Below, piece by piece: positions 4,611-63,992 of a stretch of DNA of 64,000 bases. Position 1 is the first letter of the stretch, and each line of letters opens with the position of its first letter. The DNA comes from an uncultured Bacilli bacterium (GTDB taxonomy: Bacteria; Bacillota_I; Bacilli_A; RF39; UBA660): contig CAKPEZ010000002.1 in assembly GCA_934149465.1 (NCBI GenBank), positions 88,758 to 152,757 of the forward strand, given 5' to 3'. Position numbers and translations under genes: made by a program. The notes beneath the pieces were generated by a model. The model made no database searches, was not told the DNA's origin, and saw only the letters and a program-made list of their open reading frames with translations.

Positions 4611-6152
4611 ATGAACAAAATAAAAGAAATCTTAACAAAAAAAAGGATCTTAGTATTTCTTGCAATTACTCTTTGTATGTTAATAGCGTTATTCTTTGAT
4701 TTTAAAAAAGAAACTTTTGATGGAGATGAGATATATAGTTATACTTTAGCAACTTCTCCAAATGGTGGATTTATGGTAGGAAATGTTCCTTCTAATACTT
4801 TTACTAGTCCAGTAGTATATAATGAAGCTTTAACTTTAAATAAAGCAGATTTATTTCATTTTTATAAAGTATATTTAAATCAAGCTAATGATGTTCATCC
4901 TCCTTTTTATTATTTTCTTTTTAATTTAGCAGCATCTTTTAAATTAGATTATTTTACGAAATGGACAGGATTATCCTTAAACTTAATGTTTTTTCTTGTT
5001 ACTTTAGTATTTGTTTATCTTATTAGTAAGAAATTGACTAAGAATATATATGCTAGTATATTTATAACGCTTTTATATGGACTTAGTGTAGGAGCACTTA
5101 GTAATGAAACTTTTATTAGAATGTATATGCTATCTACTATGTTTGGAACTATCTTTATATATCTTTTATTATTACTTGATGATGATAATAGTAAGTTTTA
5201 CTTATATCCATTTATTACAGTAATAACTTATTTAGGCTTTATGACTCATTATTATTTTTTAGTATTTGCGTTTTTTGCTTCTTTATTTTATGTTATATAT
5301 TTACTTACTAATAAGAGATATAAGAAGTTAATATTATTTTCCGTATTTACTTTATTAGGAGTTATCTTAGGATTTATTACTTTTAGACCAGCTTATGATC
5401 ATATGTTTAAAGGCTATAGAGGAGTAGAGTCTTCAACTAATCTTACTAGTTCTAATTTAAAATATAATTTAGATAAGATGTATCCTAGATTTAATGAAGA
5501 AGCTTTTTATAGTGATTTTCCTATTGTTATTTTCTTATTTATAAGTACTTTAGTATATGCTTTATTAAAAGTTAATCCTAAGAAGTTAATAAAAGATAAT
5601 AGATATCTTATAATAATATTATTAACTATTCTTTCTTATTTCTTCTTAGTAGTAAAGATGATTCCTATCTTATCAACTAGATATATCTATATTATTTATC
5701 CATATATCTCTATAATACTAGTTACTTTTTTAAATAAATATCTACCTAAGAAATACTTTTCTTTAGTATCAGGATTACTTTTATTACTTTGCTTTATTAA
5801 TTTAGTTAGAATAAAACCTTCTTGGAGTAATAGTATTCCAAATAAGGAGAAAGATCTTATATATAAATATCAAGCTTATCCTTATATATGTGCAGTAGAA
5901 AGTGATTATCACTTAATAGGAAAAGCCCCTTTCTTAATGAAATTCTCTAAAATTTATATTTCTTTTGATTTTAATGAAGATAATATTAAAGATATTCTTT
6001 TATATTTAAAAGAAAATAATATTAATAAAGTTTTATTTGACTTATCTGTATTAAAAGATGAGAATAAGTATTTAGATCTTCTTAAAGAAGATGATAACTA
6101 TGTTAATTCTTTTAAGACAGATATTGGTATAGTATATGAATACGCTTTTTAA
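4611..6152 (+). CDS. GT-C membrane glycosyltransferase of the PMT/ArnT (GT39/GT83) type
   Basis: 513 aa polytopic protein. First extracytoplasmic loop carries FDGDEIYSY (the DE motif of PMT/ArnT-type GT-C enzymes). Large C-terminal soluble domain. Confidence 0.55.
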   Translation: MNKIKEILTKKRILVFLAITLCMLIALFFDFKKETFDGDEIYSYTLATSPNGGFMVGNVPSNTFTSPVVYNEALTLNKADLFHFYKVYLNQANDVHPPFYYFLFNLAASFKLDYFTKWTGLSLNLMFFLVTLVFVYLISKKLTKNIYASIFITLLYGLSVGALSNETFIRMYMLSTMFGTIFIYLLLLLDDDNSKFYLYPFITVITYLGFMTHYYFLVFAFFASLFYVIYLLTNKRYKKLILFSVFTLLGVILGFITFRPAYDHMFKGYRGVESSTNLTSSNLKYNLDKMYPRFNEEAFYSDFPIVIFLFISTLVYALLKVNPKKLIKDNRYLIIILLTILSYFFLVVKMIPILSTRYIYIIYPYISIILVTFLNKYLPKKYFSLVSGLLLLLCFINLVRIKPSWSNSIPNKEKDLIYKYQAYPYICAVESDYHLIGKAPFLMKFSKIYISFDFNEDNIKDILLYLKENNINKVLFDLSVLKDENKYLDLLKEDDNYVNSFKTDIGIVYEYAF

Positions 6153-11697: not shown

Positions 11698-11699
11698 AA

Positions 11700-47157: not shown

Positions 47158-47940
47158 ATGAAAATAACACTTGATACTAATATTAAAAAATTATCATTTT
47201 TTCAAAATAGAGAAGCTTTATGTATGATGTTTTATAAAAATGGAATTATTAGTCTTAGAGATCTTCTTTTAGCCGATCAAGAAACATTGTTAAGAATACG
47301 TAATTTTGGTCCTAAATCGCTTTTTGAATTAAAAGAGATGTGCAATGATTTAGAAAATACTTATCATTTTAGTAATGATCTTGAATTAAAAAAAGCTAGA
47401 GAATTGAGAAGTAAGATAACGTTAGATATGCCTATTTATAAGTTAGATATTTTTAAGAAGAATTCATATTATAAAAGCATCGGATTATCTTTAATGGAAA
47501 ATGATATTATTACGTTAGAAGACTTATTAAAAAGTACTGATGCTAGTATTATAAATGCTTCTAGATTAACAGACTTAGCTTTAACAGAAATAAAAAAATA
47601 TTTAACTTCTTTACAAGATGAGTATCATTTTTCTTTTTCTAAAGAAAAATTGTCTTTAGATACTAAAATATCTTCAATAAATGAGTTATTGCCTCTTGGA
47701 GCAGTTATTCGTAATTTAGAATCTCATAATATTATTACTATTTCTGATTTAATAGACGCTAATGATGAAGAGGTTTTAAAAGCTCGTAATGTTGGTAAAA
47801 AGAAATTATTAAAAATAAAAGAAATATTAGAAGAAGTTATAAATTCTATTCCAGTAGAATCAAAAGAAAATTCTGGAAAAAAATTGATTTTTACATTGAA
47901 AGAAATAGAACAAGAAAAACAGTTCACTAAAAGAAAATAA
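47158..47940 (+). CDS. Protein made of three tandem RNA-polymerase alpha C-terminal-domain (alphaCTD)-like HhH modules
   Basis: Three repeats resembling alphaCTD (LSVRSANCLKNAGI-TIGDLV...EELLKIPNLGKKSLEEIKEKL). Repeat 1 is LSFFQNREALCMMFYKNGIISLRDLLLADQETLLRIRNFGPKSLFELKEMC. Repeats 2 and 3 are similar. Confidence 0.55.
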   Translation: MKITLDTNIKKLSFFQNREALCMMFYKNGIISLRDLLLADQETLLRIRNFGPKSLFELKEMCNDLENTYHFSNDLELKKARELRSKITLDMPIYKLDIFKKNSYYKSIGLSLMENDIITLEDLLKSTDASIINASRLTDLALTEIKKYLTSLQDEYHFSFSKEKLSLDTKISSINELLPLGAVIRNLESHNIITISDLIDANDEEVLKARNVGKKKLLKIKEILEEVINSIPVESKENSGKKLIFTLKEIEQEKQFTKRK

Positions 47941-49835: not shown

Positions 49836-49959
49836 TATATATTAATCGAACTTGTTTTATTTGTCAAGCGAAAATAATAAAAAAATATTTTTTTATTAAA
49901 ACTACTTGAAAAAAAGTTTAGTATATTATATACTGATATCATAAGAGGAGGTAAGAAAA

Positions 49960-50499
49960 GTGGACAATAAGAAATTATTTGGAGCAATTATTGGAGTAAT
50001 CGCATTCATTGCAGTCATCGCTGGAGCAACTTATGCTTGGTTTACATGGACATCTTCTCCAACAACTGTTGGAGGTACAACTGGATGCTTTGATATCGTT
50101 TATGCGAAAGGAACTGATATTAGTGGATCATTAGTTCCATCATCTAATTATACTGGTGGAAAATCTACTTCAGTTACTATTAATATTGATCCAAAGTGTA
50201 CAATCACTGGTAAGGCTACTTTAAAATTAACTACTAATGCTACTGCGACTGCTACTGCTATTCCTTTAACAGCTGGAGCTGTTAAATGGGCTGTGTATAA
50301 AAGTGGTGCAACTGATGCACTTGCAACTGGTACAGTAACTGCTACTGGTACTATTGATTTAGCTCAAGTTGATTTAACTACAACTGCTACTACTTATGAT
50401 TTTTACGTATGGCTTGATGGAACAATTGCTGACAACACTTATGTTGGTAAGACTTATTCTGGTTCTATTAGTGCTACTGCGACTCAAAATGCTAGTTAA
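49960..50499 (+). CDS. Secreted/anchored Thr-Ala-Gly-rich protein with TasA/SipW-cognate-like N-terminus (paralog 1)
   Basis: GTG start 8 nt after an AGGAGG RBS. N-terminal hydrophobic segment ending GATYAWFTW (compare TasA GGTWAAF). Low-complexity T/A/G-rich body. DFYVWLDG motif shared with paralogs 2 and 3. Confidence 0.5.
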   Translation: MDNKKLFGAIIGVIAFIAVIAGATYAWFTWTSSPTTVGGTTGCFDIVYAKGTDISGSLVPSSNYTGGKSTSVTINIDPKCTITGKATLKLTTNATATATAIPLTAGAVKWAVYKSGATDALATGTVTATGTIDLAQVDLTTTATTYDFYVWLDGTIADNTYVGKTYSGSISATATQNAS

Positions 50500-50576
50500 A
50501 ATTGAACGTTTAAAGCGTTCTTTTTTTATTGACTATTTACTTCTTTTTGCGTACAATTATTTAGTAGGTGAGAACT

Positions 50577-52769
50577 ATGAGTAGTTATGTTAAAGGAACT
50601 TATATTCAAAATATTTATGCTTCTGATACTGGATATACAGTAGGACTTTTCAAAGTTCTTGAAACTAATGATGAAGAATTAATTGAATATAAAAATAGAT
50701 TAATCAACTTTGTCGGAACATTTGCTAATATAAAAGAAAAAAACAATTATATATTTAGAGGGAATTGTATTAATCATCCAAGGTATGGTTTTCAGTACTC
50801 AGTTTTAGAATATGAAGTAGTAATGCCAGAAGAAAATGATGAGCTAATTACTTTTTTATCAAGTGAATTATTTCCAATTGGGGAAAAAACTGCTATTAAA
50901 ATAGTAGAAAAATTTAAAGAGAATACTTTACCAATAATCTTAGATAATCCAAGGAGCTTATTATTAATTCCAAGAATTACTGAAGTAAAAGCAATGAAAA
51001 TTCATGATACCCTAGTAGAATATCAAGCTAGTAGCCATATAATTTTAGAATTAACTAAGATGGGTTTTTCTTCTAAACAAAGTTTTACTATTTTTAATAA
51101 ATATCAAAATGAAACTTTAGAAAAAGTAAATTTAAATATTTATAATTTAATAGATGACTTTTTAGATTTTAATTTTAAAGAAGTTGATGATATTGCTTTA
51201 AAAAATGGAATTAGTCTTACTGATGATCGAAGAATGAACGCTTTCGTTATTTATACTATGGAAAAATTATGCTTTGAAAAAGGGAATACTTATCTTTCTT
51301 TAGATGATATTCTTATGGATATGGAATTTATAAATGCAGAAAATTTAGAATATTTAATGATTAATCTTGTTAGAATGGGAAAGATAGTAATAGAAGATGA
51401 GCGCTACTATTTAAAAAAATTTTATGATGCTGAAAAATATATTGCTAATTTTTTAATAAATTTAAATAATAAAGAAGATGAATTAAATAAAGGAAAAATA
51501 AAAAAATATATTGATTATGTAAGTAGAGATGAAAATATTAACTATGATGATATTCAAAAAGATGCTATTTATAATGCTTTAGTAAATAAATTTACAATCA
51601 TTACTGGAGGACCTGGTACAGGTAAAACTACAATTGTAAAAGCTATTGTTAGCGTGCTAATTAATTATTTAGATGTAAAAGATAAAGATATTGCTCTTCT
51701 TGCTCCAACTGGAAGAGCTAGTAAAAAAATGTGTGAAAAGATGAATATTGGTGCATCTACTATTCATAGATTTCTAAAGTGGAATAAAGAAACTAATGAT
51801 TTTAATATTAATGAATATGAAAAAGCTATGCAAAAATATATAATTGTAGATGAAGTTAGTATGATTGATGTATCATTAATGGAAGCTTTAGTGAAAGGCT
51901 TAAAAAAAGATGTAAGGTTAATATTAGTAGGAGACTATAATCAACTTCCTAGTGTAAGAGAAGGTCAAGTTTTAAAAGATTTAATAGATTCTAATGCGTT
52001 TAAAGTTATTAAATTAACATCTTTATATAGACAAAATGAAAACTCTTATATTGTAAAGTTAGCAAGTGAAATTAAAGATAAAAATTTATCTAAAGATTTT
52101 GCTACTTTGAAAGATGATTATAATTTCATAAAATCTCCTGGTTATAACGTATCTTATTATATTAATGAAATTATTGATAAAGCTTTATTAAAGGGATATA
52201 CTAAAGACGATATTCAAGTATTAGCGCCTATGTATAAAGGAGAAAATGGAATAGATAATTTAAATAAAATATTACAAGAAAAAATTAATCCCGCTAGTTA
52301 TTTGAAAAAAGAGCTCAAAATAGGAGATATTATTTATAGACAAGGAGATAAAGTCTTACAATTAGTTAATAGTCCTGATGATAATATATTTAATGGAGAT
52401 ATTGGTTATATAGAAGATATTTTAACAAGTAAAGAATCTAAAACAAAAAGAAATGAAATAATTATTAATTTTGATGGAAATAAAGTTTCTTATACGCAGA
52501 CTCTTCTTAATAATATTCGTCATGGGTATGCCATTAGCGTTCATAAATCTCAAGGAAGTGAATTTAAAATGGTTATTATTCCCTTTGTTAATTCGTTTAA
52601 AAGAATGCTTTATAATAAACTTATCTACACAGCAGTAACTAGAGCTAAAAGCTATTTAATTATTGTTGGCGAAGAAAAGGCATTTATTGATGGAATAAAT
52701 AATGATTATATTGAAAATAGAAAAACTACTTTAAAAAAATTTATTACTGATAAGTATAATTTAGAATAA
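50577..52769 (+). CDS. recD2: RecD2-type ATP-dependent DNA helicase (RecD/TraA family, YrrC-like)
   Basis: N-terminal HhH domains, Walker A IITGGPGTGKTT, Walker B IVDEVSM, C-terminal RecD motifs (HKSQGSE). Start at the ATG at 50577. Confidence 0.85.
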   Translation: MSSYVKGTYIQNIYASDTGYTVGLFKVLETNDEELIEYKNRLINFVGTFANIKEKNNYIFRGNCINHPRYGFQYSVLEYEVVMPEENDELITFLSSELFPIGEKTAIKIVEKFKENTLPIILDNPRSLLLIPRITEVKAMKIHDTLVEYQASSHIILELTKMGFSSKQSFTIFNKYQNETLEKVNLNIYNLIDDFLDFNFKEVDDIALKNGISLTDDRRMNAFVIYTMEKLCFEKGNTYLSLDDILMDMEFINAENLEYLMINLVRMGKIVIEDERYYLKKFYDAEKYIANFLINLNNKEDELNKGKIKKYIDYVSRDENINYDDIQKDAIYNALVNKFTIITGGPGTGKTTIVKAIVSVLINYLDVKDKDIALLAPTGRASKKMCEKMNIGASTIHRFLKWNKETNDFNINEYEKAMQKYIIVDEVSMIDVSLMEALVKGLKKDVRLILVGDYNQLPSVREGQVLKDLIDSNAFKVIKLTSLYRQNENSYIVKLASEIKDKNLSKDFATLKDDYNFIKSPGYNVSYYINEIIDKALLKGYTKDDIQVLAPMYKGENGIDNLNKILQEKINPASYLKKELKIGDIIYRQGDKVLQLVNSPDDNIFNGDIGYIEDILTSKESKTKRNEIIINFDGNKVSYTQTLLNNIRHGYAISVHKSQGSEFKMVIIPFVNSFKRMLYNKLIYTAVTRAKSYLIIVGEEKAFIDGINNDYIENRKTTLKKFITDKYNLE

Positions 52770-52835
52770 TAAGTAAATAATACTAATGGTACTAAATGTA
52801 CCTGTCATATTTTTCTAAAGGAGGAATTATTAGTA

Positions 52836-52988
52836 ATGAAATTGAAAAGTGCTGCAATAATGACAGCAATAGGTGTTGGCGGAATAGTTTTATATAGTCA
52901 AATAAAAAACGGTAATATGGCGAAAATGATGCAGGCAATTAAGCCAAAAGCCAAAGATATGTTAAATGATTTAGAAGATATGATGTAA
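52836..52988 (+). CDS. Small protein (50 aa) with N-terminal hydrophobic helix, absent from the ORF track
   Basis: Strong RBS AAGGAGGAATTATTAGTAATG. Encodes MKLKSAAIMTAIGVGGIVLYSQIKNGNMAKMMQAIKPKAKDMLNDLEDMM. Followed by a terminator-like GAGCTCTTTTTAGAGCTCTTTTT. Confidence 0.4.
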   Translation: MKLKSAAIMTAIGVGGIVLYSQIKNGNMAKMMQAIKPKAKDMLNDLEDMM

Positions 52989-53075
52989 AGAAAGAGAGCT
53001 TTTTAGAGCTCTTTTTCTTTACTATTTTTTTTATATATGATATATTTATATTAAGAATAGTAGGAGATGAATTTA

Positions 53076-54116
53076 ATGAAAAAGAATACTTCTTGGGTTT
53101 TATTATTACAGATTTCCTTAATTTTAATTGCAGCAATAGCAAGTACTTATGCAATTAATTATTTTGCTAATACAATACAAACCAATATGGTAACTGCAAA
53201 TATTGATCTTTCTTATATAGGAGATTCAGAAGTAAGTGATTCTTTATTACCAATTAAAGATACTAAAGCAGAACAATCAGCAACTAAAGTAAAATTCTCA
53301 GTAATTGAGAAAAATAAAACTAACAATATTTATTCAGGATATAGAGTAGTTTTAAGAAATGTAACAGTTCCAGTAGAACTTAGAATTCCTGAAGTAAAAT
53401 GGCAATTAGTAAAAGGATTAACTGTTATAGCAAGTGGAAACTTTGAAAATATAACTAATACTGATCGTTATCTTTTAAATGAAGAATTACAAGTTTTGCC
53501 TAAATATGGAAGTACTGCTGATGAATTAGAATTTAGAGTATGGCTTAGTGATAACGATACTAATCAAATAGCGCTAGCAGGAAAAACTATCAGTTTTAAG
53601 GTTGATGTTGAATTGTACGTTATTAATGATAAAATTGAACCATTATTTTTAGGAATCCAAGATAAAGTAGTAGAAAAAAGTAGTACTCAATTTAATACTC
53701 TTACAGGAGTAAGTGCTGTCTTATCAGATGGAACTAATCTTGATGTAACTGCTAATATAACTAGCTTAGATATAAGTACACTAGGAGATAAAATAATAGT
53801 TTATAGTGCCAAAGACGCTAATGGGAAAACTGTTACCAAGACTAGAACAATTAGAGTACTAGATGATAAAGTAGTTCCTGTTATAGATATGTCAGAAGTT
53901 CCTTCATCAATAGCACTAGGCACAGAATATGATTTACAGTCCAAAGTCAAAGTTACTTATGGCTCTTCTAGTGGAAGTATGATTTGTGGATATGGAGATG
54001 ATATGTCTATTACTAAGCCATCAGCTATAGGAAGTTATAAGTTTAAATGTATTGCAACTGGAAATAATGGTTTAACATCAACAGCAAACAAAAACTTCTC
54101 AATTATTGGAAACTAA
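53076..54116 (+). CDS. Secreted protein, paralog 2 of the TasA/SipW-like-signal family, with C-terminal Ig-like region
   Basis: N-terminus ends in ASTYAINYFAN. Shares the GNFEN and FRVWLSD blocks with paralogs 1 and 3 (GSFEN, YVYLDG/YVWLDG). The C-terminal 150 aa are beta-rich and Big-like. Confidence 0.5.
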   Translation: MKKNTSWVLLLQISLILIAAIASTYAINYFANTIQTNMVTANIDLSYIGDSEVSDSLLPIKDTKAEQSATKVKFSVIEKNKTNNIYSGYRVVLRNVTVPVELRIPEVKWQLVKGLTVIASGNFENITNTDRYLLNEELQVLPKYGSTADELEFRVWLSDNDTNQIALAGKTISFKVDVELYVINDKIEPLFLGIQDKVVEKSSTQFNTLTGVSAVLSDGTNLDVTANITSLDISTLGDKIIVYSAKDANGKTVTKTRTIRVLDDKVVPVIDMSEVPSSIALGTEYDLQSKVKVTYGSSSGSMICGYGDDMSITKPSAIGSYKFKCIATGNNGLTSTANKNFSIIGN

Positions 54117-54156
54117 AGGAGTAAGGCATAACAAGCAAAATTTAAGTCTTAATAGT

Positions 54157-54180
54157 TAAATTTAAGAAAAGAACGTTTTG
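54157..54180 (+). terminator. Rho-independent terminator
   Basis: AAAAGAAC-GTTTT-GTTCTTTT followed by a T-run. Confidence 0.6.
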
Positions 54181-54221
54181 TTCTTTTTCTTTTCATGTTA
54201 TAATGATTAAAAGGTGATTTT

Positions 54222-56402
54222 ATGTATGCTAAAGTATTAACTGAAATAGGTGCTAAAAATGTTGATAAAACTTTTTTATATAGAATTCCATCTAATTTAG
54301 AATCATCTGTTTCTAAAGGAAAAAGAGTAAAAATTCCTTTTGGAAATAGATATTTAGAGGGATTTGTAGTAGATATAACTTCATCTTTAGAAGAAAATAT
54401 CAAAGTAAAAGATATATTAGAAGTTATTGATGAGAAAGCTATATTAAATGAGGAACTTCTTTTATTAGGAAAATATATTGCTGATAAAACGTTATGTTCT
54501 TTAATAACTGCTTATCAAACTATGCTTCCTAAGGCTTTAAAAGCTAATATAAAAATTAATATGAAACCTATTAAAGAAAAGTATTTACTTTTAAATAAGA
54601 ATAAAGATATAGATTCTTATTTAAAGAATTGTCCTTATAAATCACAAGTAGAAATATTAAATAAATTAAAAGAAGAAAAAGAGGTAAAGATAGATAAATT
54701 AACTAGTAGTATTAATACATTAATAAAAAAAGATCTAATTTATCTAGAATACCGTGATAAATATCGTTATGAATATAATAAAAATACTTTAGATAAGAAA
54801 GTAACTTTAAATGAAGAACAAGAAAATGCGGTAAATATCGTTAGTAATAATTTTAATAGCGCTATAACTTATCTATTATATGGGGTTACTGGAAGTGGAA
54901 AGACAGAAGTTTATCTTTCTCTTATCGAAAAAGTAATTAATAATGGAAAAAGTGCAATTATGCTTGTCCCAGAGATAAGTTTAACTCCGCAAATTATAAG
55001 CCGTTTTAAGGCGAGATTTGGGGATGATGTTGCTGTTTTACATAGTGCACTTAGTGATGGAGAAAGATATGATGAATATAGAAAAATAATGGAAAATAAG
55101 GTTCATATCGTAGTAGGAGCAAGAAGTGCTATTTTTGCACCACTTAAAAATATAGGCATCATTATTATTGATGAAGAGCACGTTCAAACTTATAAACAAG
55201 ATACTTCTCCTAGATATCATGCAAGAGATGTTGCTATTTGGCGAAGTAATTATTATAAATGTCCTCTTATACTAGGAAGTGCTACTCCTTCTTTAGAAAG
55301 TTATGCAAGAGCACTTAAGAATATTTATTATCTTTTAGAACTTAAGCAAAGAGCTAATAAAAAGGATCTTCCTAATATTACGGTTGTTGATATGAAAAAA
55401 GAATATGCTAAAAAGAATATGATTTTTTCAGATGCTTTAAAGAATAACATAAATAAGTGCTTAGACTTAAAAGAACAAGTAATTTTACTATTAAATAGAA
55501 GAGGATATTCTTCAATTATTACTTGTAAAGATTGCGGGCATGTTTTTAAATGTCCTAACTGTGATATTAGCTTAACTTATCATAAGACTTCTAACATACT
55601 AAGATGTCATTACTGCGGATATGCTACTAATTTTCCAAGTAATTGTCCTAACTGTAAGCAAAAAAATTTAAAAGATTTTGGCTTAGGAACTGAGAGATTA
55701 GAAGAAGAGATAAATCACTTATTTCCACAAGCAAGAGTTGTTCGAATGGATTTAGATACTACTTCTAAAAAGGGAGGTCATGAAAAAATTATTGACGATT
55801 TTGCCAACTATAAATATGATATCTTAGTTGGTACTCAGATGATTGCAAAAGGATTAGATTTTCCTTTAGTAACATTAGTAGGTGTTATTAATGCAGATAT
55901 GTCTTTAAATATTCCTGATTTTAGAAGTAGTGAAAGAACTTTCCAATTACTTTGCCAAGTTTCTGGAAGAGCAGGAAGAGCTTCTAAAGAAGGAAACGTT
56001 ATAGTGCAAGCTATTAATAATGAACACTATAGTATTAAGCATGCTATGAAACATGATTATCTTGGTTTTTATCAAGAAGAAATGAATATTAGGAAGATCT
56101 TAAAATATTCTCCTTATTATTATATTACTCTAATTAAAATAATGGCTAAAGATTATACAAAGGGAATGAATGAAGCAATAAAAATAGCATCTTACTTAAA
56201 AAAAGAATTATCTAAAGAAACAATAGTATTAGGACCAAGTCCTGCTAATGTTTTAAAAATAAATAATATTTATAATTTTCAGTGTATTATCAAATACCGC
56301 AAAGATGATAACTTAATAAAAACTCTTAAATTTATCGATAATAAATATATAATAGAAAAAGATATAAATATTTCTATAGATCAAGATCCATTAAGATTAT
56401 AA
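54222..56402 (+). CDS. priA: Primosomal protein N' (replication restart helicase PriA)
   Basis: Walker A GVTGSGKT, DEEH box, and the Cys-rich zinc region CKDCGHVFKCPNC...CHYCGY...CPNC. Confidence 0.9.
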   Translation: MYAKVLTEIGAKNVDKTFLYRIPSNLESSVSKGKRVKIPFGNRYLEGFVVDITSSLEENIKVKDILEVIDEKAILNEELLLLGKYIADKTLCSLITAYQTMLPKALKANIKINMKPIKEKYLLLNKNKDIDSYLKNCPYKSQVEILNKLKEEKEVKIDKLTSSINTLIKKDLIYLEYRDKYRYEYNKNTLDKKVTLNEEQENAVNIVSNNFNSAITYLLYGVTGSGKTEVYLSLIEKVINNGKSAIMLVPEISLTPQIISRFKARFGDDVAVLHSALSDGERYDEYRKIMENKVHIVVGARSAIFAPLKNIGIIIIDEEHVQTYKQDTSPRYHARDVAIWRSNYYKCPLILGSATPSLESYARALKNIYYLLELKQRANKKDLPNITVVDMKKEYAKKNMIFSDALKNNINKCLDLKEQVILLLNRRGYSSIITCKDCGHVFKCPNCDISLTYHKTSNILRCHYCGYATNFPSNCPNCKQKNLKDFGLGTERLEEEINHLFPQARVVRMDLDTTSKKGGHEKIIDDFANYKYDILVGTQMIAKGLDFPLVTLVGVINADMSLNIPDFRSSERTFQLLCQVSGRAGRASKEGNVIVQAINNEHYSIKHAMKHDYLGFYQEEMNIRKILKYSPYYYITLIKIMAKDYTKGMNEAIKIASYLKKELSKETIVLGPSPANVLKINNIYNFQCIIKYRKDDNLIKTLKFIDNKYIIEKDINISIDQDPLRL

Positions 56403-56413
56403 GGAGGGATAAG

Positions 56414-57130
56414 ATGGAAAAGATTGTAATGAAAATAAGTGGAGAAGCTTTAAAAGATAGTAATAGTTCTATTAGTGAAGAAAAGTTAGATATTGTCTAT
56501 CAAAGTATAAAAATGCTTCTTGATAATAATAAGTCTTTAATATTAATTACAGGAGGAGGAAATATTTGGCGAGGTAGATCTCATAAGAATATGGACGATA
56601 ATACTAAAGATAGCATTGGAATGCTTGCTACTGTAATGAATTCTCTTGCATTAAGAGATTATCTAACTAAAAATAATATAAAATCATATCTTTGCGGTTC
56701 ATTCTTAATTGAAGGAATTGTTCCTAAATATAATAAAGACGAGTGCTTAGAACATTTAAATAATAACGAGGTAATAATTATCTCTGGTGGAGTAGGCCTT
56801 CCATTTACAACAACCGATTTTGCTTGTGTTCAAAGAGCACTTGAATTAAAAGCAGATTATTTACTTATGGGAAAAAATATAGATGGAATTTATGATAAAG
56901 ATCCCAAAAAGTATAAGGATGCAGTTAAGTATGATGAATTAACTTTTGAGAGTTTCTTAGATATTCAAATAAAAAATGGATTAAGTAATCAAGGAGTAAT
57001 AGATGTTAATGCCCTTTCTTTACTTTGTGCTCATAAATTAAAGACTATTTTATATAAAATAGATGATAAAGACGCTATTAAAAAAATAATTAATAAAGAA
57101 AAAGTGGGGACTATAATTAAAGAACAGTAA
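56414..57130 (+). CDS. pyrH: UMP-kinase-like amino-acid-kinase family protein
   Basis: KISGEAL and ITGGGNIWRG motifs. 238 aa. Located after priA rather than after tsf. Confidence 0.7.
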   Translation: MEKIVMKISGEALKDSNSSISEEKLDIVYQSIKMLLDNNKSLILITGGGNIWRGRSHKNMDDNTKDSIGMLATVMNSLALRDYLTKNNIKSYLCGSFLIEGIVPKYNKDECLEHLNNNEVIIISGGVGLPFTTTDFACVQRALELKADYLLMGKNIDGIYDKDPKKYKDAVKYDELTFESFLDIQIKNGLSNQGVIDVNALSLLCAHKLKTILYKIDDKDAIKKIINKEKVGTIIKEQ

Positions 57131-57143
57131 AATGTTCTTTTTT
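57120..57143 (+). terminator. Rho-independent terminator overlapping the pyrH stop
   Basis: AAGAACA-GTAAAAT-GTTCTTT followed by T-run. Followed by a TTGACA-17-TATACT promoter for queA. Confidence 0.55.
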
Positions 57144-57210
57144 ATTTGACAGAAAGTAAGAATTTTGCTATACTAAAAAACGATTTTTATAAAAAGGGAG
57201 TAGCAGAAAA

Positions 57211-58233
57211 ATGAAAACAGATGATTTTGATTTTTACTTACCAGAAGAGTTAATCGCGCAAACGCCTCTTCTAAAAAGAGATTCTTCTAAAATGATGGTT
57301 TTAGATCGAAAAACACGTACTAGAAGTGATCATGTATTTACGGATATTATTGATTATTTAGAAGAAGGAGATACCTTAGTATTAAATGATACTAAAGTAC
57401 TCCCAGCTCGTCTTCATGGAATAAAAGAAGATACTAAAGCTCATATTGAAATATTACTTTTAAAAGAAGAGGATGCTGATACTTGGCAGTGTTTAGTAAA
57501 ACCAGCTAAAAGAATAGATGTTGGAACAAGAATAATCTTTAGTGATGAATTAAGTGCTAGATGCTTAGAAGTAAGAGAAGAAGGAATTAGAATATTAAAA
57601 TTAGAATATACTAAAATATTATATGAGATATTAGATAAATTAGGAGAAATGCCTTTACCTCCATATATAAAATCTCATCTAGAAGATAAAGATAGGTATC
57701 AAACAGTATATGCTAAAAATGAAGGAAGTGCGGCTGCGCCAACAGCAGGATTACACTTTACTAAAACGCTTCTTTCTAAAATAAAAGAAAAAGGCGTAAA
57801 TATTTGCTATGTAACTTTGCATGTTGGACTTGGTACTTTTAGACCAGTTAATGTAGAAGATGTAACTAAACATAAAATGCACAGTGAATATTATATTATG
57901 ACTAAAGAAACAGCAGATATCTTAAATAATACTAGAAAAAATGGGAAGAAAATTATCAGCGTTGGTACTACTTCAACAAGAACTTTAGAAACAATTATGA
58001 AGAAATATCATACTTTTAAAGAATGTAGTGGTTGGACAGATATTTTTATCTATCCTGGATATAAGTTTGAAGGAATAGATGCTTTAATTACGAACTTCCA
58101 TTTACCAAAATCAACTTTAATTATGTTAGTAAGTGCTTTTGCTGATAAAGATTTTATCTTAGATAGCTATAAAGATGCGGTTAATAAGAAATATCGTTTC
58201 TTCTCGTTTGGTGATTGTATGTTAATAAAATAA
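57211..58233 (+). CDS. queA: S-adenosylmethionine:tRNA ribosyltransferase-isomerase QueA
   Basis: N-terminal [14 protein letters not shown] signature. 340 aa. Confidence 0.9.
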
Positions 58234-58321
58234 CGAGAATTACGTTATTACGACAAAATTAACTAAAAAAAAAGGAAAATGAAATTTTTTGTAGAATATT
58301 AAATTAGGGGATGATTTTATT

Positions 58322-60055
58322 ATGAGGACGATTACTAACGAACTTATTAATGAAATTAGAAATAAAACGGATATCGTTAACGTAATATCAAATTATTTAC
58401 CACTAACCAAAAGAGGCAAAAATTACTTTGGCGTTTGCCCATTTCATGACGATCATTCTCCTAGTATGAGTGTTAGCTCTGAAAAGCAAATATATACATG
58501 CTTTTCATGCGGAGCTTCTGGTAATGTCTTTACTTTTGTTTCCGAGTATGAGCATATCTCATTTATTGAAGCAGTAAAATTACTTGGAGAAAAGCTTGGA
58601 TTAAGCCTTTCTAATGTCAAAGAAGAACACATTGATCCTAAATATGCTAACTATTATAAAATATATGACTTAGCAAGTAAATTTTATCAAAATAATATAA
58701 ATACAGCTCTAGGAAAAGAAGCCTATGCTTATCTAGAGAAAAGACATTTTGATAAAGATACTATTAGAAAATTTGGAATAGGCTTATCAAGTAAAAATAC
58801 TCCTCTTACCACGTTATTATTAAAAAGTGGTTATGATAAAGAAACTCTTATTACCTTAGGACTTACTAATGATGGAGAAAATGATCTATTTATAAATAGA
58901 ATTATGTTTCCTTTGTTTGATTTAAATGGACAAGTAGTAGGATTTAGTGGAAGAATTTACTTAACTAAAGATTCTAGTAAATATGTAAACTCTAAAGAAT
59001 CACCAATCTTTAAAAAAGGAGAACTTCTCTATAATTACCATAATGTAAAAGAGCACTTAAAAAAAAGTGATACTCTAATTATTATGGAAGGATTTATGGA
59101 TGTAATTAGAGCAAGTACTATTGGAATAGATAATTGTGTGGCATCTATGGGAACAGCAGTTACTAAAAATCAAGCTCTTCTTTTAAAGAAAAGTGCTAAT
59201 AATATAGTTCTTTGCTTTGATGGAGATTCAGCTGGAGAAGATGCTACTATCTCTTGTGCAGAACTTCTCTTAAAAAATGGAGTAACTCCTAAAGTGGTTA
59301 GACTAGAAGAAGAGTTAGATCCTGATGAATATATTCTAAAATATGGAGAAGAAGCTTTTAAACAAAAAATAAATAATCCAATAAGTTTATTAGAATTTAA
59401 AATGAACTTATTAAAAAAAGATCATAAATTTAATGATTTAAAAGATATATCTAATTATGTAAATGAAGTAATAAAGAATTTACTTAATGAAAATGATGAA
59501 ATTGTTATTGATTTAACTTTAAAAAAAGTAAGCAGTGAATTTAATATTGATTATGAAATATTAAAAAATAAATATTTAGCTAGTAAGAATAATACTAAAA
59601 AAGAAGTAATTATCTTAAAAGAAAATAAACAAATAACTAAAGATAAATATCTTCTTGCTTATCAAAGTATTATTAATTATATGCTAAAAAGTACAGAGGC
59701 AATTACAATATATGAAAAGAAAGCTCCTTATTTACCTAATGATCTATTAAGATATCTTGCTAATGAAATAATATCTTATTATCATAAATACGGTACAATT
59801 AATGTAGCGGACTTTATTAGTTATATAGAAGATAATAATGAATTAAAACAAGCTTTAAAAGATGTATTAAAAGTAAATACTAATGATAATTTTGAAGAAG
59901 ATGAAATAAATGATTATCTAAAAATTATCAATGAAGCTAATGTTAAATCTAAAATAAAAAGACTAGAAGAAGACTTAAAAAAAGAAACTGATCCTATCAA
60001 ACAAGGTCATATCTTGGATGAAATAAATCAAATTAAACTGATTTTAGGATCTTAA
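58322..60055 (+). CDS. dnaG: DNA primase DnaG
   Basis: Zinc ribbon CPFHDDHSPSMSV...CFSCG, and TOPRIM domain (EGFMD, DGDSAG). Confidence 0.9.
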   Translation: MRTITNELINEIRNKTDIVNVISNYLPLTKRGKNYFGVCPFHDDHSPSMSVSSEKQIYTCFSCGASGNVFTFVSEYEHISFIEAVKLLGEKLGLSLSNVKEEHIDPKYANYYKIYDLASKFYQNNINTALGKEAYAYLEKRHFDKDTIRKFGIGLSSKNTPLTTLLLKSGYDKETLITLGLTNDGENDLFINRIMFPLFDLNGQVVGFSGRIYLTKDSSKYVNSKESPIFKKGELLYNYHNVKEHLKKSDTLIIMEGFMDVIRASTIGIDNCVASMGTAVTKNQALLLKKSANNIVLCFDGDSAGEDATISCAELLLKNGVTPKVVRLEEELDPDEYILKYGEEAFKQKINNPISLLEFKMNLLKKDHKFNDLKDISNYVNEVIKNLLNENDEIVIDLTLKKVSSEFNIDYEILKNKYLASKNNTKKEVIILKENKQITKDKYLLAYQSIINYMLKSTEAITIYEKKAPYLPNDLLRYLANEIISYYHKYGTINVADFISYIEDNNELKQALKDVLKVNTNDNFEEDEINDYLKIINEANVKSKIKRLEEDLKKETDPIKQGHILDEINQIKLILGS

Positions 60056-60067
60056 GGAGGAAAAAGT

Positions 60068-61168
60068 ATGGTCGAAGAAATTAAAACTTTTGAAGAAAGA
60101 AAAAAAGCACTTATCAAAAAAGGAAAAGCAGATGGCTTTATAACTTATGAAGAACTTGCTAGTGAATTAAAAGGACTTGATCTAGATAGCGATGCTCTAG
60201 ATGAATTATATAATTCTTTAATTGAAAATAATATTGAAATTGTTTCAGATGATGATGATATTGGAAACGATGACAATGATGATGATGATGGTAATTTAGA
60301 AAAACTTTTAGAAGATAATACAATTGCTAAAGAATTATCTATTAATGATCCAGTTAGAATGTATCTAAAAGAAATAGGTAAAATATCTCTATTATCTTTA
60401 GATGAAGAATTAAAGTTATCCGAAAGAATAGTTAATGGTGATGAAGAAGCTAAAAATATATTAGCAGAATCTAATCTTCGTTTAGTAGTATCTATTGCTA
60501 AAAGATACGTAGGAAGAGGAATGCTATTTCTTGATCTAATTCAAGAAGGTAATATTGGCTTAATGAAAGCAGTTGAAAAGTTTGATGCTGCTAAAGGATA
60601 TAAATTTTCAACATATGCTACTTGGTGGATTAGACAAGCTATTACAAGAGCAATTGCCGATCAAGCAAGAACTATCAGAGTTCCTGTTCATATGGTTGAA
60701 ACTATTAATAAATTATCTCGTTTTCAACGACAATTAACTTTAGAATTAAATAGAGAACCTACTGATGAAGAACTTGCTAAAAAGATGAATACTACTCCTG
60801 ATAAAATAAGAGAAATAGTTAAAATAGCGCAAGAACCTGTATCATTAGAAACTCCAATTGGTGAAGAAGATGATTCTCACTTAGGAGATTTTGTTAAGGA
60901 TGAACGTACTATGAGTCCTGAAGAATATACTACTCATGAAATACTAAAAGATAAAATTTCTGATGTATTATTAACTTTAACTGAAAGAGAAGAACAAGTA
61001 TTACGTCTTCGTTTTGGACTTGATGATGGTTGTTGTAAGACCTTAGAAGAAGTAGGCCAAATGTTTGGTGTAACAAGAGAAAGAATTAGACAAATAGAAG
61101 CTAAAGCCCTAAGAAAATTACGTCATCCATCACGTTCTCGTCAATTAAAGGATTTCCTTAATGATTAA
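60068..61168 (+). CDS. sigA: Primary RNA polymerase sigma factor SigA/RpoD
   Basis: Regions 2-4: [58 protein letters not shown]. Confidence 0.9.
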
Positions 61169-61826
61169 TGTTAAATTATCTCCTAGATTAGAAGCAGTAT
61201 CATCTTATGTTAAAGATGATTCTAAAATAATAGATATTGGCTGTGATCATGCTTTTTTGGATATATATTTATATAAAAATAGAAATAATATTAAGATAAT
61301 TGCATCTGACGTTAATGAAAAAGCTCTGCAAAACGCTAAAGCTAATATTCATAAATATAACTTAGATAATAAGATAGATACTAGACTTGGTAGTGGTCTT
61401 ACTGTTTTAAATGATGAAGATATAGATACTATTATTCTAGCCGGAATGGGTAGTTTTACGATGCTAAAGATCTTAAATCATGATCTTTTAAAAAAAACTT
61501 CTATTAAGCAAATAATAGTTCAAAGTAATACAGATTTATATCTTCTTAGAAAAGAAGTAATAAAAAAAGGCTTCTATATTAAGAATGAACAAGTAATAAA
61601 AGAAAATAATCTATATTACGTAATAATTAATTTTGAACGTGGTAAAAGAAAATATTCTAAGAAAGAGTTATACTTAGGACCATGCTTAATAAAAGAAAAC
61701 GCTCCTATCTTTATTGAAAAGAAAACCAAAGAATTAAATAAATTAAAAACTATTTATAAGAAAATTCCTTGGTATCATATATTTCTTAAGATCAAAATAA
61801 AAAAATTAATAAGATTGTACAAATAG
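61161..61826 (+). CDS. trmK: tRNA (adenine22-N1)-methyltransferase TrmK (YqfN-like)
   Basis: SAM-binding [11 protein letters not shown]. Conserved position downstream of sigA. Confidence 0.7.
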
Positions 61827-61909
61827 TCTTATTAATTTTTTTATTTTTATATTTTAATCTAAATATTTCTATGTTATAATTATATTAAAGTAAGAAAGTA
61901 GGGAAAGAC

Positions 61910-63475
61910 ATGGAGAAGAAAAAAACATACATTATCTTAGGAATTATTACTTTAATAATAGTAGTTTTTGGAGTAACATTTGCTTGGGTTACCTGGAAAA
62001 GTGCAGATAATACCAACATAAATCTTACAGTAAATGGCTTAGATATTAAATCAACAGATATCGATATTACAGGAAATAATATTATGCCTGTCTTAGATAA
62101 AGAAAATGGAATAGTAGAAGATTTTACCGTAAAATCTAATACTGATACTGGAAATACTCCAGTATGTGCAGATTTTACTTTAACACTAACTTTATTACCA
62201 GATGGATTAAAAGATCCAAGTTTTAAATATGATATCTATAATGGTTCTACTTTAGTAGGAAGAGGAAGCTTTGAAAACTATAATCAAGGTGATGTTATTA
62301 CAATTGCAAGTGGTCAAAGCATTACAACAACAGAATCTAAATATAAAATATACGTCTATCTAGATGGTAACATGGATAATCCAATTACAGTTACTAAACA
62401 AACATTCTTATTCCATCTAAAAATAACAGCTAGCCAGCAAGAAGGAGCATGTACTCCAAGTGAGATAAAAGAACCATCTTTTGCTGATGATATTATAGAA
62501 AAATATAATAATAACAAAGATGCTACTCCAGTAAAAAATAATAATGTTGATTATTACTATGCTTCAAGTGAATCTTTAATGCAAGATAAAGCAGGTAATA
62601 TTAGATATTATGGAGCAAATCCAAATAATTATATTTACTTTAACTGTGATGATTATTCTAATCAAACAGCAGATACTTGTGAAGTATGGCGTATTATTGG
62701 AGTATTTGATGGTAAGATCAAACTAATTCGTAATAGTCTAATAGGTAAATATTCTTGGGATACATCAGCAAGTACAGTAAACTCTGGAAAAGGATATAAT
62801 CAGTGGGGAGAAAACGGTGATTATAAGGGAGCAGACTTAATGAAGCTTTTAAATCCAGGATATTCTGATAATACTGATTTAAATAAAAGTGGAACATCAA
62901 TAAAAGTAAATAATAGTTTATATTACAATGCTGGATCAGGAACTTGTTATAGTGGCAAAAGTAATGCGACGACGACATGTGACTTTACTAAGACAGGCTT
63001 AAAAAACGATCAAACAAGAAATTTAATTTCTAAGACATTATATTATCTAGGAGGAAATAATAATTCTTCGGTATATTCAGATCAAATGTATGAATACGAA
63101 AGAGGAACAGAACTAGGGGGTAGTCCTTATGCTTCTTCTACTTGGGAAGGATATATTGCTCTTCCATATGCAAGTGATTATGGATATGCCGCCGACTTTA
63201 ATAGTTGTACACAAATTTTAAATAATTATAGTGATACTTCTTGTACAAGCACCAACTGGATGAAATCAGTTCTAACTAGTATGGGTTGGTTATTATCGCC
63301 TTATTCTGTCTATTCTGACACTGCGTGGGTTGTGTATTTCTATGGGTATGTGAACGGCGACGCCGTGTATGTTGCTGATGGCGTTGCCCCGGTCCTTTAT
63401 CTAGAATCTAATGCGAATATAGATGGAGCAACAACTGGTACTAGTGATAATCCATATAAACTTATAGTAAGTTAA
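61910..63475 (+). CDS. Large secreted protein, paralog 3 of the TasA/SipW-like-signal family, with C-terminal DUF1566/C-type-lectin-like domain
   Basis: N-terminus ends in GVTFAWVTW. YVYLDG and GSFEN blocks are shared with the paralogs. C-terminal WRIIG...WLLSPYSVYSDTAWVVYFYGYVNGDAVYV aligns with the DUF1566 consensus (WRLP...yWSS...AWyvnFsnGnvn...yvRcVR). Confidence 0.5.
   Translation: MEKKKTYIILGIITLIIVVFGVTFAWVTWKSADNTNINLTVNGLDIKSTDIDITGNNIMPVLDKENGIVEDFTVKSNTDTGNTPVCADFTLTLTLLPDGLKDPSFKYDIYNGSTLVGRGSFENYNQGDVITIASGQSITTTESKYKIYVYLDGNMDNPITVTKQTFLFHLKITASQQEGACTPSEIKEPSFADDIIEKYNNNKDATPVKNNNVDYYYASSESLMQDKAGNIRYYGANPNNYIYFNCDDYSNQTADTCEVWRIIGVFDGKIKLIRNSLIGKYSWDTSASTVNSGKGYNQWGENGDYKGADLMKLLNPGYSDNTDLNKSGTSIKVNNSLYYNAGSGTCYSGKSNATTTCDFTKTGLKNDQTRNLISKTLYYLGGNNNSSVYSDQMYEYERGTELGGSPYASSTWEGYIALPYASDYGYAADFNSCTQILNNYSDTSCTSTNWMKSVLTSMGWLLSPYSVYSDTAWVVYFYGYVNGDAVYVADGVAPVLYLESNANIDGATTGTSDNPYKLIVS
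63290..63420 (+). other. Candidate DGR variable region (A-depleted, G/C-ending-codon-rich 3' end of the 61910 gene)
   Basis: In about 100 nt (63323-63405) only about 12% A, versus about 40% elsewhere. Codons TCG, GCG, GTG, GGC, GAC, GCC, CCG and GTC are otherwise rare here. NNC-type codons (TTC, AAC, GGC, GAC, GCC, GTC) cluster exactly over the DUF1566-like hypervariable tail. Confidence 0.3.
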
Positions 63476-63491
63476 AGCCTATTAAGAATTA

Positions 63492-63522
63492 AACTGTATC
63501 TTAAATAAAGATGCAGTTTTTT
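63492..63522 (+). terminator. Rho-independent terminator
   Basis: AAACTGTATCTT-AAATAA-AGATGCAGTTT followed by T-run. Confidence 0.55.
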
Positions 63523-63614: not shown

Positions 63615-63992
63615 ATGATTGAGACACAAACAATTGATATTAGACAAGTTCAAAAGATCTTAAATAATTGTCCTAATTATGACGAAATAGTTAATTATGA
63701 ATACCAAGAAGGAGATTTACTTTCATCATCACTAATAGACTGGTATAGGGATTTAGTTTTCTCTGCTGATGGAGATGATGAACGTCAATTAAAAATAATT
63801 AATGTAGTAGATCGCAGTTTATCTATGTATATTACAGATAGTCGTTATAAAAGAGGATTAAAGCAAGTATTATCTAGTGAAGAAGTAAATGATCATAGCT
63901 TAATGAAACAAATTATAAAGAAGATTATATCTTTTACTGCCTATTATGAAAAAAGAGAAGTTTTTGATACTGTTAATTCTAAGTGGATCTAA
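63615..63992 (+). CDS. Hypothetical 125-aa protein immediately downstream of the candidate VR gene
   Basis: RBS AAGGTAG. No recognisable motif, mostly helical composition. Confidence 0.4.
   Translation: MIETQTIDIRQVQKILNNCPNYDEIVNYEYQEGDLLSSSLIDWYRDLVFSADGDDERQLKIINVVDRSLSMYITDSRYKRGLKQVLSSEEVNDHSLMKQIIKKIISFTAYYEKREVFDTVNSKWI

Follow-up and report, generated by a model that had tools for sequence, protein, structure and literature searches.

Three paralogous exported proteins of an uncultured gut Bacilli bacterium share a module that is likely related to TasA

The locus

We analysed a stretch of 64,000 nucleotides (hereafter the window; contig CAKPEZ010000002.1, positions 88,758 to 152,757 of the forward strand, NCBI GenBank assembly GCA_934149465.1) from an uncultured Bacilli bacterium, in which three genes for exported proteins lie scattered among housekeeping genes. 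The corresponding open reading frames (ORFs), at 49960, 53067/53076 and 61910, are named p1, p2 and p3, and the labels L001 to L087 designate related public contigs or loci. The window has a GC content of about 25% and its genes are of the Firmicute housekeeping and sporulation type (RecO, ThiI, alpha/beta SASP, RecD2, PriA, QueA, DnaG, SigA and TrmK), with peptidoglycan genes (MurG, MurB, FtsW and UppS) among them. The related loci come from metagenome-assembled genomes (MAGs) of gut and rumen samples, classified as uncultured 'Bacilli', 'Erysipelotrichaceae', 'Tenericutes' and 'Bacillales'. Proteins of the window were found on up to 108 public contigs, without a name in any source, and we know of no surface structure described for these low-GC gut Bacilli, which are represented by MAGs only.

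The three genes look like separate transcription units between housekeeping genes, since each of them has its own promoter-like site and/or terminator hairpin (Table 1). In particular, p1 looks monocistronic, and its GTG start is preceded by a strong ribosome-binding site (AGGAGG) located 8 nucleotides (nt) upstream. With regard to p2, the sequence-only reading that preceded this work had assigned a length of 349 amino acids (aa) to the start at 53076, but that length belongs to the ATG at 53067, and the start at 53076 gives the shorter form. The latter is the better spaced of the two, given that the ribosome-binding site AGGAG ends at 53066, and it is also the version recorded in public collections and gene calls.

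Table 1. Coordinates and layout of p1, p2 and p3 and of their flanking signals in the window (an arrow marks a cleavage site)
Feature	Position	Strand	Description
p1	49960-50499	+	179 aa, GTG start; module only, T/A/G-rich; candidate major subunit
p1 layout			mature tail W27-G39, then beta-sandwich aa 40-176; two Cys (C43, C80)
p1 promoter-like site	49906..49934	+	TTGAAA-17-TATACT upstream of p1; consensus match only
p1 signal peptide	49960..50037	+	aa 1-26, MDNKKLFGAIIGVIAFIAVIAGATYA; cleavage predicted after T24-Y25-A26, by the -3/-1 rule and by analogy with T-W-A↓A in TasA
Terminator-like hairpin with T-run	50504..50530	+	directly 3' of the p1 stop codon
p2	53076..54116	+	346 aa, or 349 aa if started at the ATG at 53067; leader end ASTYA
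p2 domains	module to ~53645; C-terminal region 53646-54116	+	Ig-like C-terminal region; Bact_surface_Ig-like at ~53688-53858
p3	61910-63475	+	521 aa; leader aa 1-25, leader end GVTFA; module to ~62461
p3 C-terminal domain			~340 aa, Cys-rich, DUF6273-like end
Terminator-like hairpin	63491..63519	+	after p3

Mature p1 is distinguished by its composition, in which T, A, G and S make up 53.6% of the residues (T 22.9%, zero Glu) as compared with 21.3% in the ORFs of the window, so that the short, low-complexity, T/A/G-rich subunit perceived earlier is indeed there. The C-terminal region of p2 matches Bact_surface_Ig-like at 27.4 bits, just above the cutoff of 27, and that of p3 matches only DUF6273, weakly (E 0.04). 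The proposed division into a short subunit and long ones with adhesin domains is real, and it is repeated across the family described below.

A shared N-terminal module and its leader

That three ORFs of the plus strand have an N-terminal module of about 175 aa in common was confirmed by BLASTP and by hidden Markov models (HMMs) from which the sequences of the window had been excluded. By BLASTP, p1 and p3 align over 172 aa with an E-value of 1e-6, and p2 is linked to p3 at 5e-5 and to p1 at 0.05. A model made from the 29 homologues of p1 only (see below) recovers p3 at 2.5e-24 (residues 1-178) and p2 at 2.1e-6 (residues 10-176), and one made from 149 external representatives only gives 1e-71 for p1, 3.7e-42 for p3 and 2e-22 for p2. 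Among the rest of the ORFs in the window, the best match to the latter model has an E-value of 0.19 and none is below 0.01. The conclusion that p1, p2 and p3 are paralogous exported proteins is supported. Two internal blocks that had been regarded as common to the three proteins survive in part: G(N/S)FEN is present in p2 and p3 but absent from p1, and (Y/R)V(W/Y)L(D/S)G is found as YVWLDG in p1 and YVYLDG in p3, but p2 carries RVWLSD, with no G at the end.

The leader strings read earlier, GATYAWFTW in p1, GVTFAWVTW in p3 and ASTYAINYF in p2, are all there. A regular-expression scan of the window ORFs of at least 70 aa finds a leader of the type [GAS]-x-[TS]-[YF]-A-aromatic after a hydrophobic stretch only in these three proteins, and the motif G-x-T-[FWY]-A-x-F-[ST] is represented by GATYAWFT (p1), GVTFAWVT (p3) and, in a divergent form, ASTYAINY (p2). 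Across the family, G(-5), T(-3), Y/F(-2) and A(-1) occur in 171 of 181 sequences and constitute the best conserved columns of the module (3.4-4.2 bits over the 181 sequences), T(-3) and A(-1) being near-invariant; W/Y/F, L/F, T/S and W/F follow. Near-invariant small residues at -3 and -1 fit the requirement of a type I signal-peptidase site. The arrangement is mirrored by the site of TasA, G-G-G-T-W-A↓A-F-N-D, which was verified with the help of PDB 8AUR, a chain that begins with A28.

Other possibilities for the leader and its surroundings were considered and rejected. The mature tail was at one point taken as the best conserved segment, and its column statistics turned out to be only average, the conserved part being the c-region of the leader. 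Furthermore, neither a lipobox nor an LPXTG signal is present in p1-p3, whose C-termini are ...ATATQNAS, ...NFSIIGN and ...NPYKLIVS, and both lipoprotein sorting and sortase sorting (i.e., a sortase-assembled pilin) were discarded for this reason. Moreover, exactly two Cys are found in the module of 126 of the 181 members, a pattern that is consistent with an extracellular disulfide.

A very large family in gut Bacilli

A homologue search with p1 yields 29 unnamed proteins of 173-238 aa with no Pfam domain, and word-indexed searches with the modules of p2 and p3 returned no matches; the family was reached through the p1 homologues plus an exhaustive profile search. The latter collects 3,527 representatives at 50% identity with E <= 1e-3, 1,183 of them at <= 1e-10, in proteins of 112-1,052 aa that have the module at the N-terminus in all cases and whose hosts are uncultured gut Bacilli. 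No model of Pfam or NCBIfam covers the module itself. The C-terminal domains of the longer members are surface-adhesin domains, namely DUF285/PARCEL, Flg_new (Listeria-Bacteroides repeats), BspA-type LRR, Laminin_G_3, MBG, AgI/II C2, Ig-like and FGE-sulfatase.

In the same organism, a fourth paralogue of 599 aa (L087 3215-5014, E 1.2e-23) lies upstream, about 6 kb before the start of the window, and together with p1-p3 it brings the family to four or more members in about 84 kb of genome. Its leader reads ...GIGFTYAWLTW and its gene stands between recX and polA. Relatives with a p1-RecD2-p3-like synteny exist, and human-gut contigs carry tandem arrays in which three or four subunits of about 186 aa are followed by one of about 520 aa (L060 152-6254; also L059, L061, L063, L064 and L068).

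Probable relationship with TasA-type proteins

When 150 representatives of the family were compared with the curated collections, Peptidase_M73 (PF12389) was the most frequent Pfam match at E <= 1 (19/150, best 0.0011) and TIGR04088, the SipW-cognate leader model, the most frequent NCBIfam match (15/150, best 1.5e-5). As a whole these matches are sub-threshold, the best of those to TIGR04088 being above cutoff as judged by comparison with the scores of the L085 proteins. Such recurrence is far beyond chance for single models among some 20,000. Peptidase_M73 reaches 17.7 bits over residues 8-62 of a p3-like protein in L013.

A bridge to the characterized proteins is provided by L085, a metagenome contig of higher GC content which encodes a BTAD regulator, SipW and three Peptidase_M73/TIGR04088 proteins of 408, 196 and 347 aa (L085 3893-8972; see also L086). 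This is a textbook sipW-tasA-like operon: its SipW scores 114.5 bits with TIGR02228 (cutoff 51.85), and the three proteins exceed the cutoffs of PF12389 and TIGR04088 and have leaders GATYAWFT(D/A), to be compared with the GATYAWFTW of p1. The family HMM aligns with these proteins at the N-terminus (30 bits) and in a C-terminal block, iWlDg..n.Y.Gk.ysGyIsaeAtQ in the family as against vCLDG..GNQYQGKvFkltaqfEAvQ in L085. In profile-profile comparison with hhalign, the family and a profile of five L085/L086 sequences are related with a probability of 96.0% (E 4.5e-9, 163 columns). With TasA of Bacillus subtilis alone the values are of 6.7-12.9% and not significant, and the part that aligns is the same C-terminal strand.

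Structure prediction leads in the same direction. The AlphaFold2 model of p1, obtained with 32 sequences (pLDDT 82.4), predicts a helix at residues 4-30, a low-confidence linker and a nine-strand beta-sandwich; the model of mature p1, from W27 onward, has a pLDDT of 86.4 and a pTM of 0.81, and its initial 13 residues stay under a pLDDT of 50. The top match of both models in a Foldseek search of the PDB is AbpA (7UEG), with E-values of 1.7e-6 and 2.7e-5 and a probability of 1.0; further down come sandwiches of a generic kind and pilin domains (PapG, FimG). With respect to the TasA-like jellyroll for which the sequence-only reading had proposed a test, a beta-sandwich is predicted and its best PDB match is AbpA, with a TM-score of only 0.35-0.43 and an identity of 14-16% over some 170-190 aligned columns. 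The predicted fold points towards the TasA superfamily and, because of that TM-score, it is not decisive. We regard homology of the module with the TasA/BsaA superfamily as likely, a view based on leader, terminal strand and fold class as opposed to the domain in its entirety.

Diversity-generating retroelements and the 3' end of p3

The 3' end of p3 stands out from the rest of the gene. Over about 136 nt (63280-63415, plus strand) it has 47% GC and 15% A, as compared with 30% GC and 39% A elsewhere in the gene, and it aligns to the variable repeats (VRs) of diversity-generating retroelements (DGRs) in p3 orthologues. In L012, the VR (4349-4451) and the template repeat (TR; 4758-4860) differ at 23 of 103 nt, and 22 of the 23 mismatches fall at template adenines; downstream of the TR, between 5452 and 7248, lie genes for a MutS_I-like protein (122 aa), an Avd-like protein (114 aa) and an RVT_1 reverse transcriptase (RT; 367 aa). 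L011 has the equivalent repeats at 4965-5067 and 5371-5473. Judging from this pattern, the p3 orthologues of L011 and L012 are genuine DGR targets. For p3 itself, a window-wide repeat search, a blastn search with the VR-like segment and inspection of gene content revealed neither a TR nor an RT over the window and the 9.5 kb beyond its end. The diversification by a DGR envisaged earlier is borne out in these orthologues but not at the locus itself, where the segment is possibly served by a remote DGR or a relic of one.

Directly 3' of p3, the window encodes a 125-aa ORF (63615-63992) with no Pfam match, which occupies the position that DGR accessory genes have in L011 and L012, without visible similarity to those genes.

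Proposed function

Our overall reading, to which we assign a probability of about 0.55, is that p1, p2 and p3 are paralogues within a very large extracellular family, which is TasA-like and has a probable role in polymerisation or fibre formation. The components of this reading differ in strength. That the module is a secreted one of the TasA superfamily seems to us quite probable, and the module of about 150 aa is likely to be a beta-jellyroll that represents a distant branch of the superfamily of TasA/BsaA/camelysin (Peptidase_M73) and AbpA. That it forms fibres by donor-strand exchange is a more tentative proposal, for which we would not offer quite even odds. In one way or another, the family probably builds or decorates surface fibres.

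The course of events would be as follows. The leader would be cut after A(-1), i.e., A26 in p1, A25 in p3 and A26 in the 346-aa form of p2, by a type I signal peptidase. Candidates are the housekeeping enzyme of LepB type, in analogy with AbpA of archaea, and a SipW from another part of the genome. The tail thus released at the N-terminus (W-F/L-T-W...), unstructured in the monomer model, would then insert as donor strand into the next subunit. In this way p1, as the backbone, would polymerise into a fibre or matrix; its small size, its T/A/G-rich composition and its own promoter, strong ribosome-binding site and terminator lead us to infer that it is the polymerising subunit. In turn, p2, with its Ig-like region, and p3, lectin-like and with DGR-targeted orthologues, would enter the fibre by way of that module, to carry adhesins or to nucleate assembly much as TapA does. 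More speculatively, passage through the wall may be aided by machinery resembling the type IV pilus (T4P), as reported for BsaA and BsaC of Clostridium perfringens. A bolder version of this scheme can also be conceived, namely a SipW-independent donor-strand-exchange fibre with p1 as backbone, into which dozens of adhesin and lectin paralogues, some of them hypermutated by DGRs, are plugged to give a combinatorial, hypervariable display filament exported with T4P-like help; as a complete picture, it strikes us as distinctly unlikely.

Several observations weigh against the proposed TasA-like function and must be set out together. A first group concerns the curated models. The TasA/SipW-type leader suggested from the sequence stands insofar as its motif is that of the SipW-operon proteins in L085, but p1-p3 miss the cutoff of TIGR04088: with this 34-position leader model (cutoff 19 bits), scanned on full-length proteins and on leaders only and giving 26.6 bits for the 196-aa protein of L085 as positive control, p1 obtains 6.5 bits (E 10) and p2 and p3 have no match. 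The Peptidase_M73 model fares no better, with 10.4 bits for p1, confined to residues 4-33, against a cutoff of 22.5, and none for p2 and p3. Moreover, when the signal peptides are removed from both sides of the hhalign comparison with L085/L086, a probability of 24.8% is left (E 7.9e-4) and the alignment shrinks to the 39 residues at the C-terminal end, and profile searches of PDB sequences gave no match.

A second group concerns the processing enzyme. As stated by the sequence-only reading, there is no sipW in the window, where a phmmer search and a motif scan found no signal peptidase of either type. In the flanks of the same organism, signal peptidase genes, sipW included, are missing from the 9.5 kb downstream (L045) and from the 10 kb upstream (L087), and no SipW (TIGR02228) was detected beside the family members of gut Bacilli, in about 80 loci with some 900 kb of flanking sequence (L001-L084). 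The sole signal peptidase in L001-L084 is a LepB-type housekeeping enzyme, in L044, in the usual rplS-lepB-rbgA position, and the only SipW seen is that of the distant L085. The lack of an adjacent sipW around family members means that an operon in the style of tapA-sipW-tasA is absent from the gut-Bacilli branch.

As regards the mechanism, the mature tail (1.65 bits) is not better conserved than the folded domain (1.84 bits), and a tail that is predicted as disordered is no specific evidence for a donor strand. Finally, the proximity of T4P genes, described in the next section, may be due to chance, since paralogues are dense (at least four in 84 kb) and synteny is shared.

Alternative explanations

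The main alternative, though we hold it to be rather unlikely, is that these are surface proteins that do not polymerise. The N-terminal helix would be an uncleaved signal anchor, G-x-T-Y-A-W-F-T-W an interfacial belt, and the sandwich a common stalk for variable adhesin or lectin domains, of which p1 has none. This would agree with the prediction by AlphaFold2 of a single helix at residues 4-30, with the motif G8xxxG12 in the p1 subfamily, which resembles a helix-packing motif, and with the weak N-terminal matches of family members to membrane-anchor families such as FliL, AmaP, the MBA N-terminus and the P110 adhesin N-terminus. Dozens of paralogues that differ in their C-terminal adhesin domains, as do variable surface proteins of the Mollicutes type, and the lack of a dedicated peptidase gene nearby are also what an anchored stalk would lead one to expect. 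Nevertheless, the near-invariance of T(-3) and A(-1) answers to a need of signal peptidases that an aromatic belt does not have, and the same motif is the cleaved SipW site in TasA-type proteins (PMC9674648). Besides, the peptidoglycan genes listed above imply a wall, under which a tethered domain of 150 aa would be placed, and it is hard to see what purpose a bare stalk would serve in proteins of the p1 type, which consist of the module alone and are conserved, with their synteny, from genome to genome.

According to a second alternative, which appears very unlikely, the proteins would belong to a type IV filament system (T4P, Com or Tad-like), either as subunits of an unconventional kind or as its dedicated cargo, and would be handled by a PilC-like platform and a prepilin peptidase. 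It owes its interest to the gene neighbourhood. In L001 (10001-16701), genes for a PilC-like T2SSF protein and a Peptidase_A24 prepilin peptidase are flanked by five paralogues (184, 215, 159, 189 and 191 aa), an arrangement that recurs in at least two species and whose occurrences (L001-3, L024, L071, L074, L075, L080 and L081) belong to one lineage, and QueA-DnaG-SigA follow the locus as they do in the window. In several lineages, canonical prepilin genes lie a few kb from family members (L008, L013, L021, L022, L028, L047 and L052), and in L060 a TadB/TadC-like T2SSF pair, together with yebC, directly precedes the tandem array. In the organism studied here, a canonical prepilin gene (L045 14715-15128, MGNKGFTLIELL..., with an N_methyl match) is found 3.2 kb 3' of p3, about 2.7 kb past the end of the window. 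Furthermore, the layout of a helix followed by a beta-sandwich resembles that of archaeal type IV pilins.

Two features of these pilin genes may be recorded in passing. The prepilin gene of L045 adjoins a SpoIIIAH-like gene, ahead of the genes for a GyrB-family topoisomerase subunit, SpoIIGA and SigE. In L030 (3839-6706), L033 (1861-7500), L035 (2207-7409), L072 and L073 there are type IV pilins that are giant and modular, with 800-955 aa and an N-terminus that reads KGFTLIELL, and their genes are located a few kb upstream of family members, beside PriA, SpoIIIAH-like and GerM-like genes; as neighbours of family members, they count together with the canonical prepilins on the side of a type IV filament.

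The proteins themselves do not look like pilins. The genuine ones in the same loci have KGFTL[IV]EL, but the prepilin site G↓F-x-x-x-E before the hydrophobic segment is missing from p1-p3 and from most paralogues, and N_methyl gives no match. Cleavage of p1-p3 by a prepilin peptidase was considered in view of the T2SSF/A24 neighbours and rejected: the motif comes after the hydrophobic segment, on the outer side of the helix, which for an A24 peptidase is the wrong face of the membrane, and the Gly before the segment is missing in most paralogues. Moreover, no T2SSE ATPase is present in any locus examined, including the 10 kb around the T2SSF/A24 locus, and most loci have no T4P gene at all. 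The published link offers another interpretation of the neighbourhood, which fits the TasA-like function, the T4P being there an aid for the export of TasA-like proteins: in C. perfringens, the secretion of BsaC and, less clearly, that of BsaA oligomers depend on T4P genes, according to a 2025 preprint, in which BsaA and BsaB are TasA-like proteins of a sipW operon and BsaC is a protein with a vWA domain (PMC11580942). The co-localisation seen in gut Bacilli could be the same coupling as that of BsaA and BsaC, and it could equally be chance, which the density of paralogues and the shared synteny make plausible.

A third possibility, that of secreted camelysin-like metalloproteases in the sense of the original Peptidase_M73 annotation, is barely conceivable: this 'camelysin metallo-endopeptidase' is indeed the one named family of Pfam that is weakly matched time and again, but no such match reaches the threshold and their place is the leader plus the first strand, and mature p1 is devoid of Glu, the acidic catalytic residue of zinc metalloproteases. 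TasA itself has a structural role in fibres and is probably descended from a protease that had lost its activity (PMC9245690).

Other features of the window

Two further observations concern genes unrelated to the module. Between recO and thiI, a gene for a protein of 260 aa (47158-47940) stands alone; the protein is made of repeated helix-hairpin-helix units, which match the C-terminal domain of the RNA polymerase alpha subunit (RNA_pol_A_CTD, E 1.9e-15). At 9469-14153, two adjacent genes encode fused ABC ATPase-permeases of 742 and 817 aa and share DNA segments of about 100 nt that are 79% identical (9892-9992 and 12129-12229), which looks like an old tandem duplication.

Implications

The family is large, with at least 3,500 clusters at 50% identity and no fewer than four members in the 84 kb considered here, and yet neither Pfam nor NCBIfam has a model for it. 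If its module polymerises as do TasA, BsaA and AbpA, the TasA superfamily would extend into a major host-associated group of bacteria, fibres of the TasA type would prove able to function with no SipW next to them, and a modular display of adhesins, including DGR-diversified lectins, would come to light. It would also constitute a second and independent setting for the proposed link between T4P machinery and the export of TasA-like matrix proteins. Even as a mere membrane-proximal stalk, the module would still mark the main repertoire of variable surface proteins in these organisms.

Comparison with known systems

The closest parallels are found in the TasA/TapA/SipW system of B. subtilis. In TasA the donor strand, which TapA shares, comprises residues 28-38, immediately after the cleavage site (PMC9674648). 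The likeness extends from the Sec leader with G-x-T-aromatic-A at the site (GGGTWA↓AFND in TasA, AGATYA↓WFTW in p1) and the N-terminal tail that follows it, through a G-x-x-D-[IL] strand and a sandwich that is predicted to be of jellyroll type, to a C-terminal N-x-Y-x-G...A-T-Q strand, and it includes the combination of a short, presumed main subunit with longer paralogues that have the N-terminal region in common, as TapA does. The differences are nonetheless considerable: p1-p3 miss the thresholds of the curated HMMs, they are encoded not in a tapA-sipW-tasA operon but by apparently monocistronic genes scattered among housekeeping ones, W replaces D at +4, and the module, with its two Cys, is much smaller than TasA and without its helical insertions. 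The family furthermore has many paralogues per genome, with fused adhesin domains.

BsaA, BsaB and BsaC of C. perfringens (NCBIfam TIGR04090) offer a second term of comparison (PMC11580942, PMC7395162). BsaA remains signal-anchored until strand exchange, and its residues 28-38, disordered in monomer models as is the tail of p1, act as the donor strand (PMC11580942). One paralogue in L001 has a weak TIGR04090 match of 14.5 bits, and the partly T4P-gene-dependent export of BsaA/BsaC has its parallel, from gene neighbourhood, in the PilC/PilD and pilin genes beside family members. Unlike p1-p3, however, BsaA is encoded by a sipW operon and is locked by N-K isopeptide bonds catalysed by Glu, a residue that mature p1 lacks altogether, its tail having neither Asn nor Lys.

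The bundling pilin AbpA of the archaeon Pyrobaculum calidifontis (PDB 7UEG) is similar to p1 in size (about 180 aa), and its structure, a jellyroll with an N-terminal donor strand, is the one that the p1 model matches best. This TasA homologue, related to TasA only at profile level, depends for its processing on a generic signal peptidase and not on a sipW dedicated to it (PMC9245690). The structural distance given above, the lack of any sequence-level match to p1 and the archaeal nature of AbpA, which has its own operon with AbpB, set the two apart.

The proteins of L085 and L086 share with p1 an identical GATYAWFT leader and with the family a C-terminal block, WLDG/CLDG...N-x-Y-x-GK...A-x-Q, and they likewise consist of one short (196 aa) and two longer paralogues (347 and 408 aa). 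They differ in that they pass the PF12389 and TIGR04088 cutoffs, lie directly behind sipW and the BTAD regulator, and have a mid-domain (NWNPGD and its neighbours) without detectable counterpart in p1-p3. The modular type IV pilins of Gram-positive bacteria, e.g., PilB and PilC of Streptococcus sanguinis, illustrate the same design, in which a polymerisation module carries large adhesin or lectin modules and so presents them on the filament. The module of p1-p3 is another one, with neither a class III signal peptide nor an N_methyl match.

Since the curated thresholds are missed and no SipW is encoded nearby, p1, p2 and p3 should not be filed as TasA/SipW-class proteins. They are better described as members of a branch that is divergent and modular, has expanded massively and probably works in the way of TasA, BsaA and AbpA.

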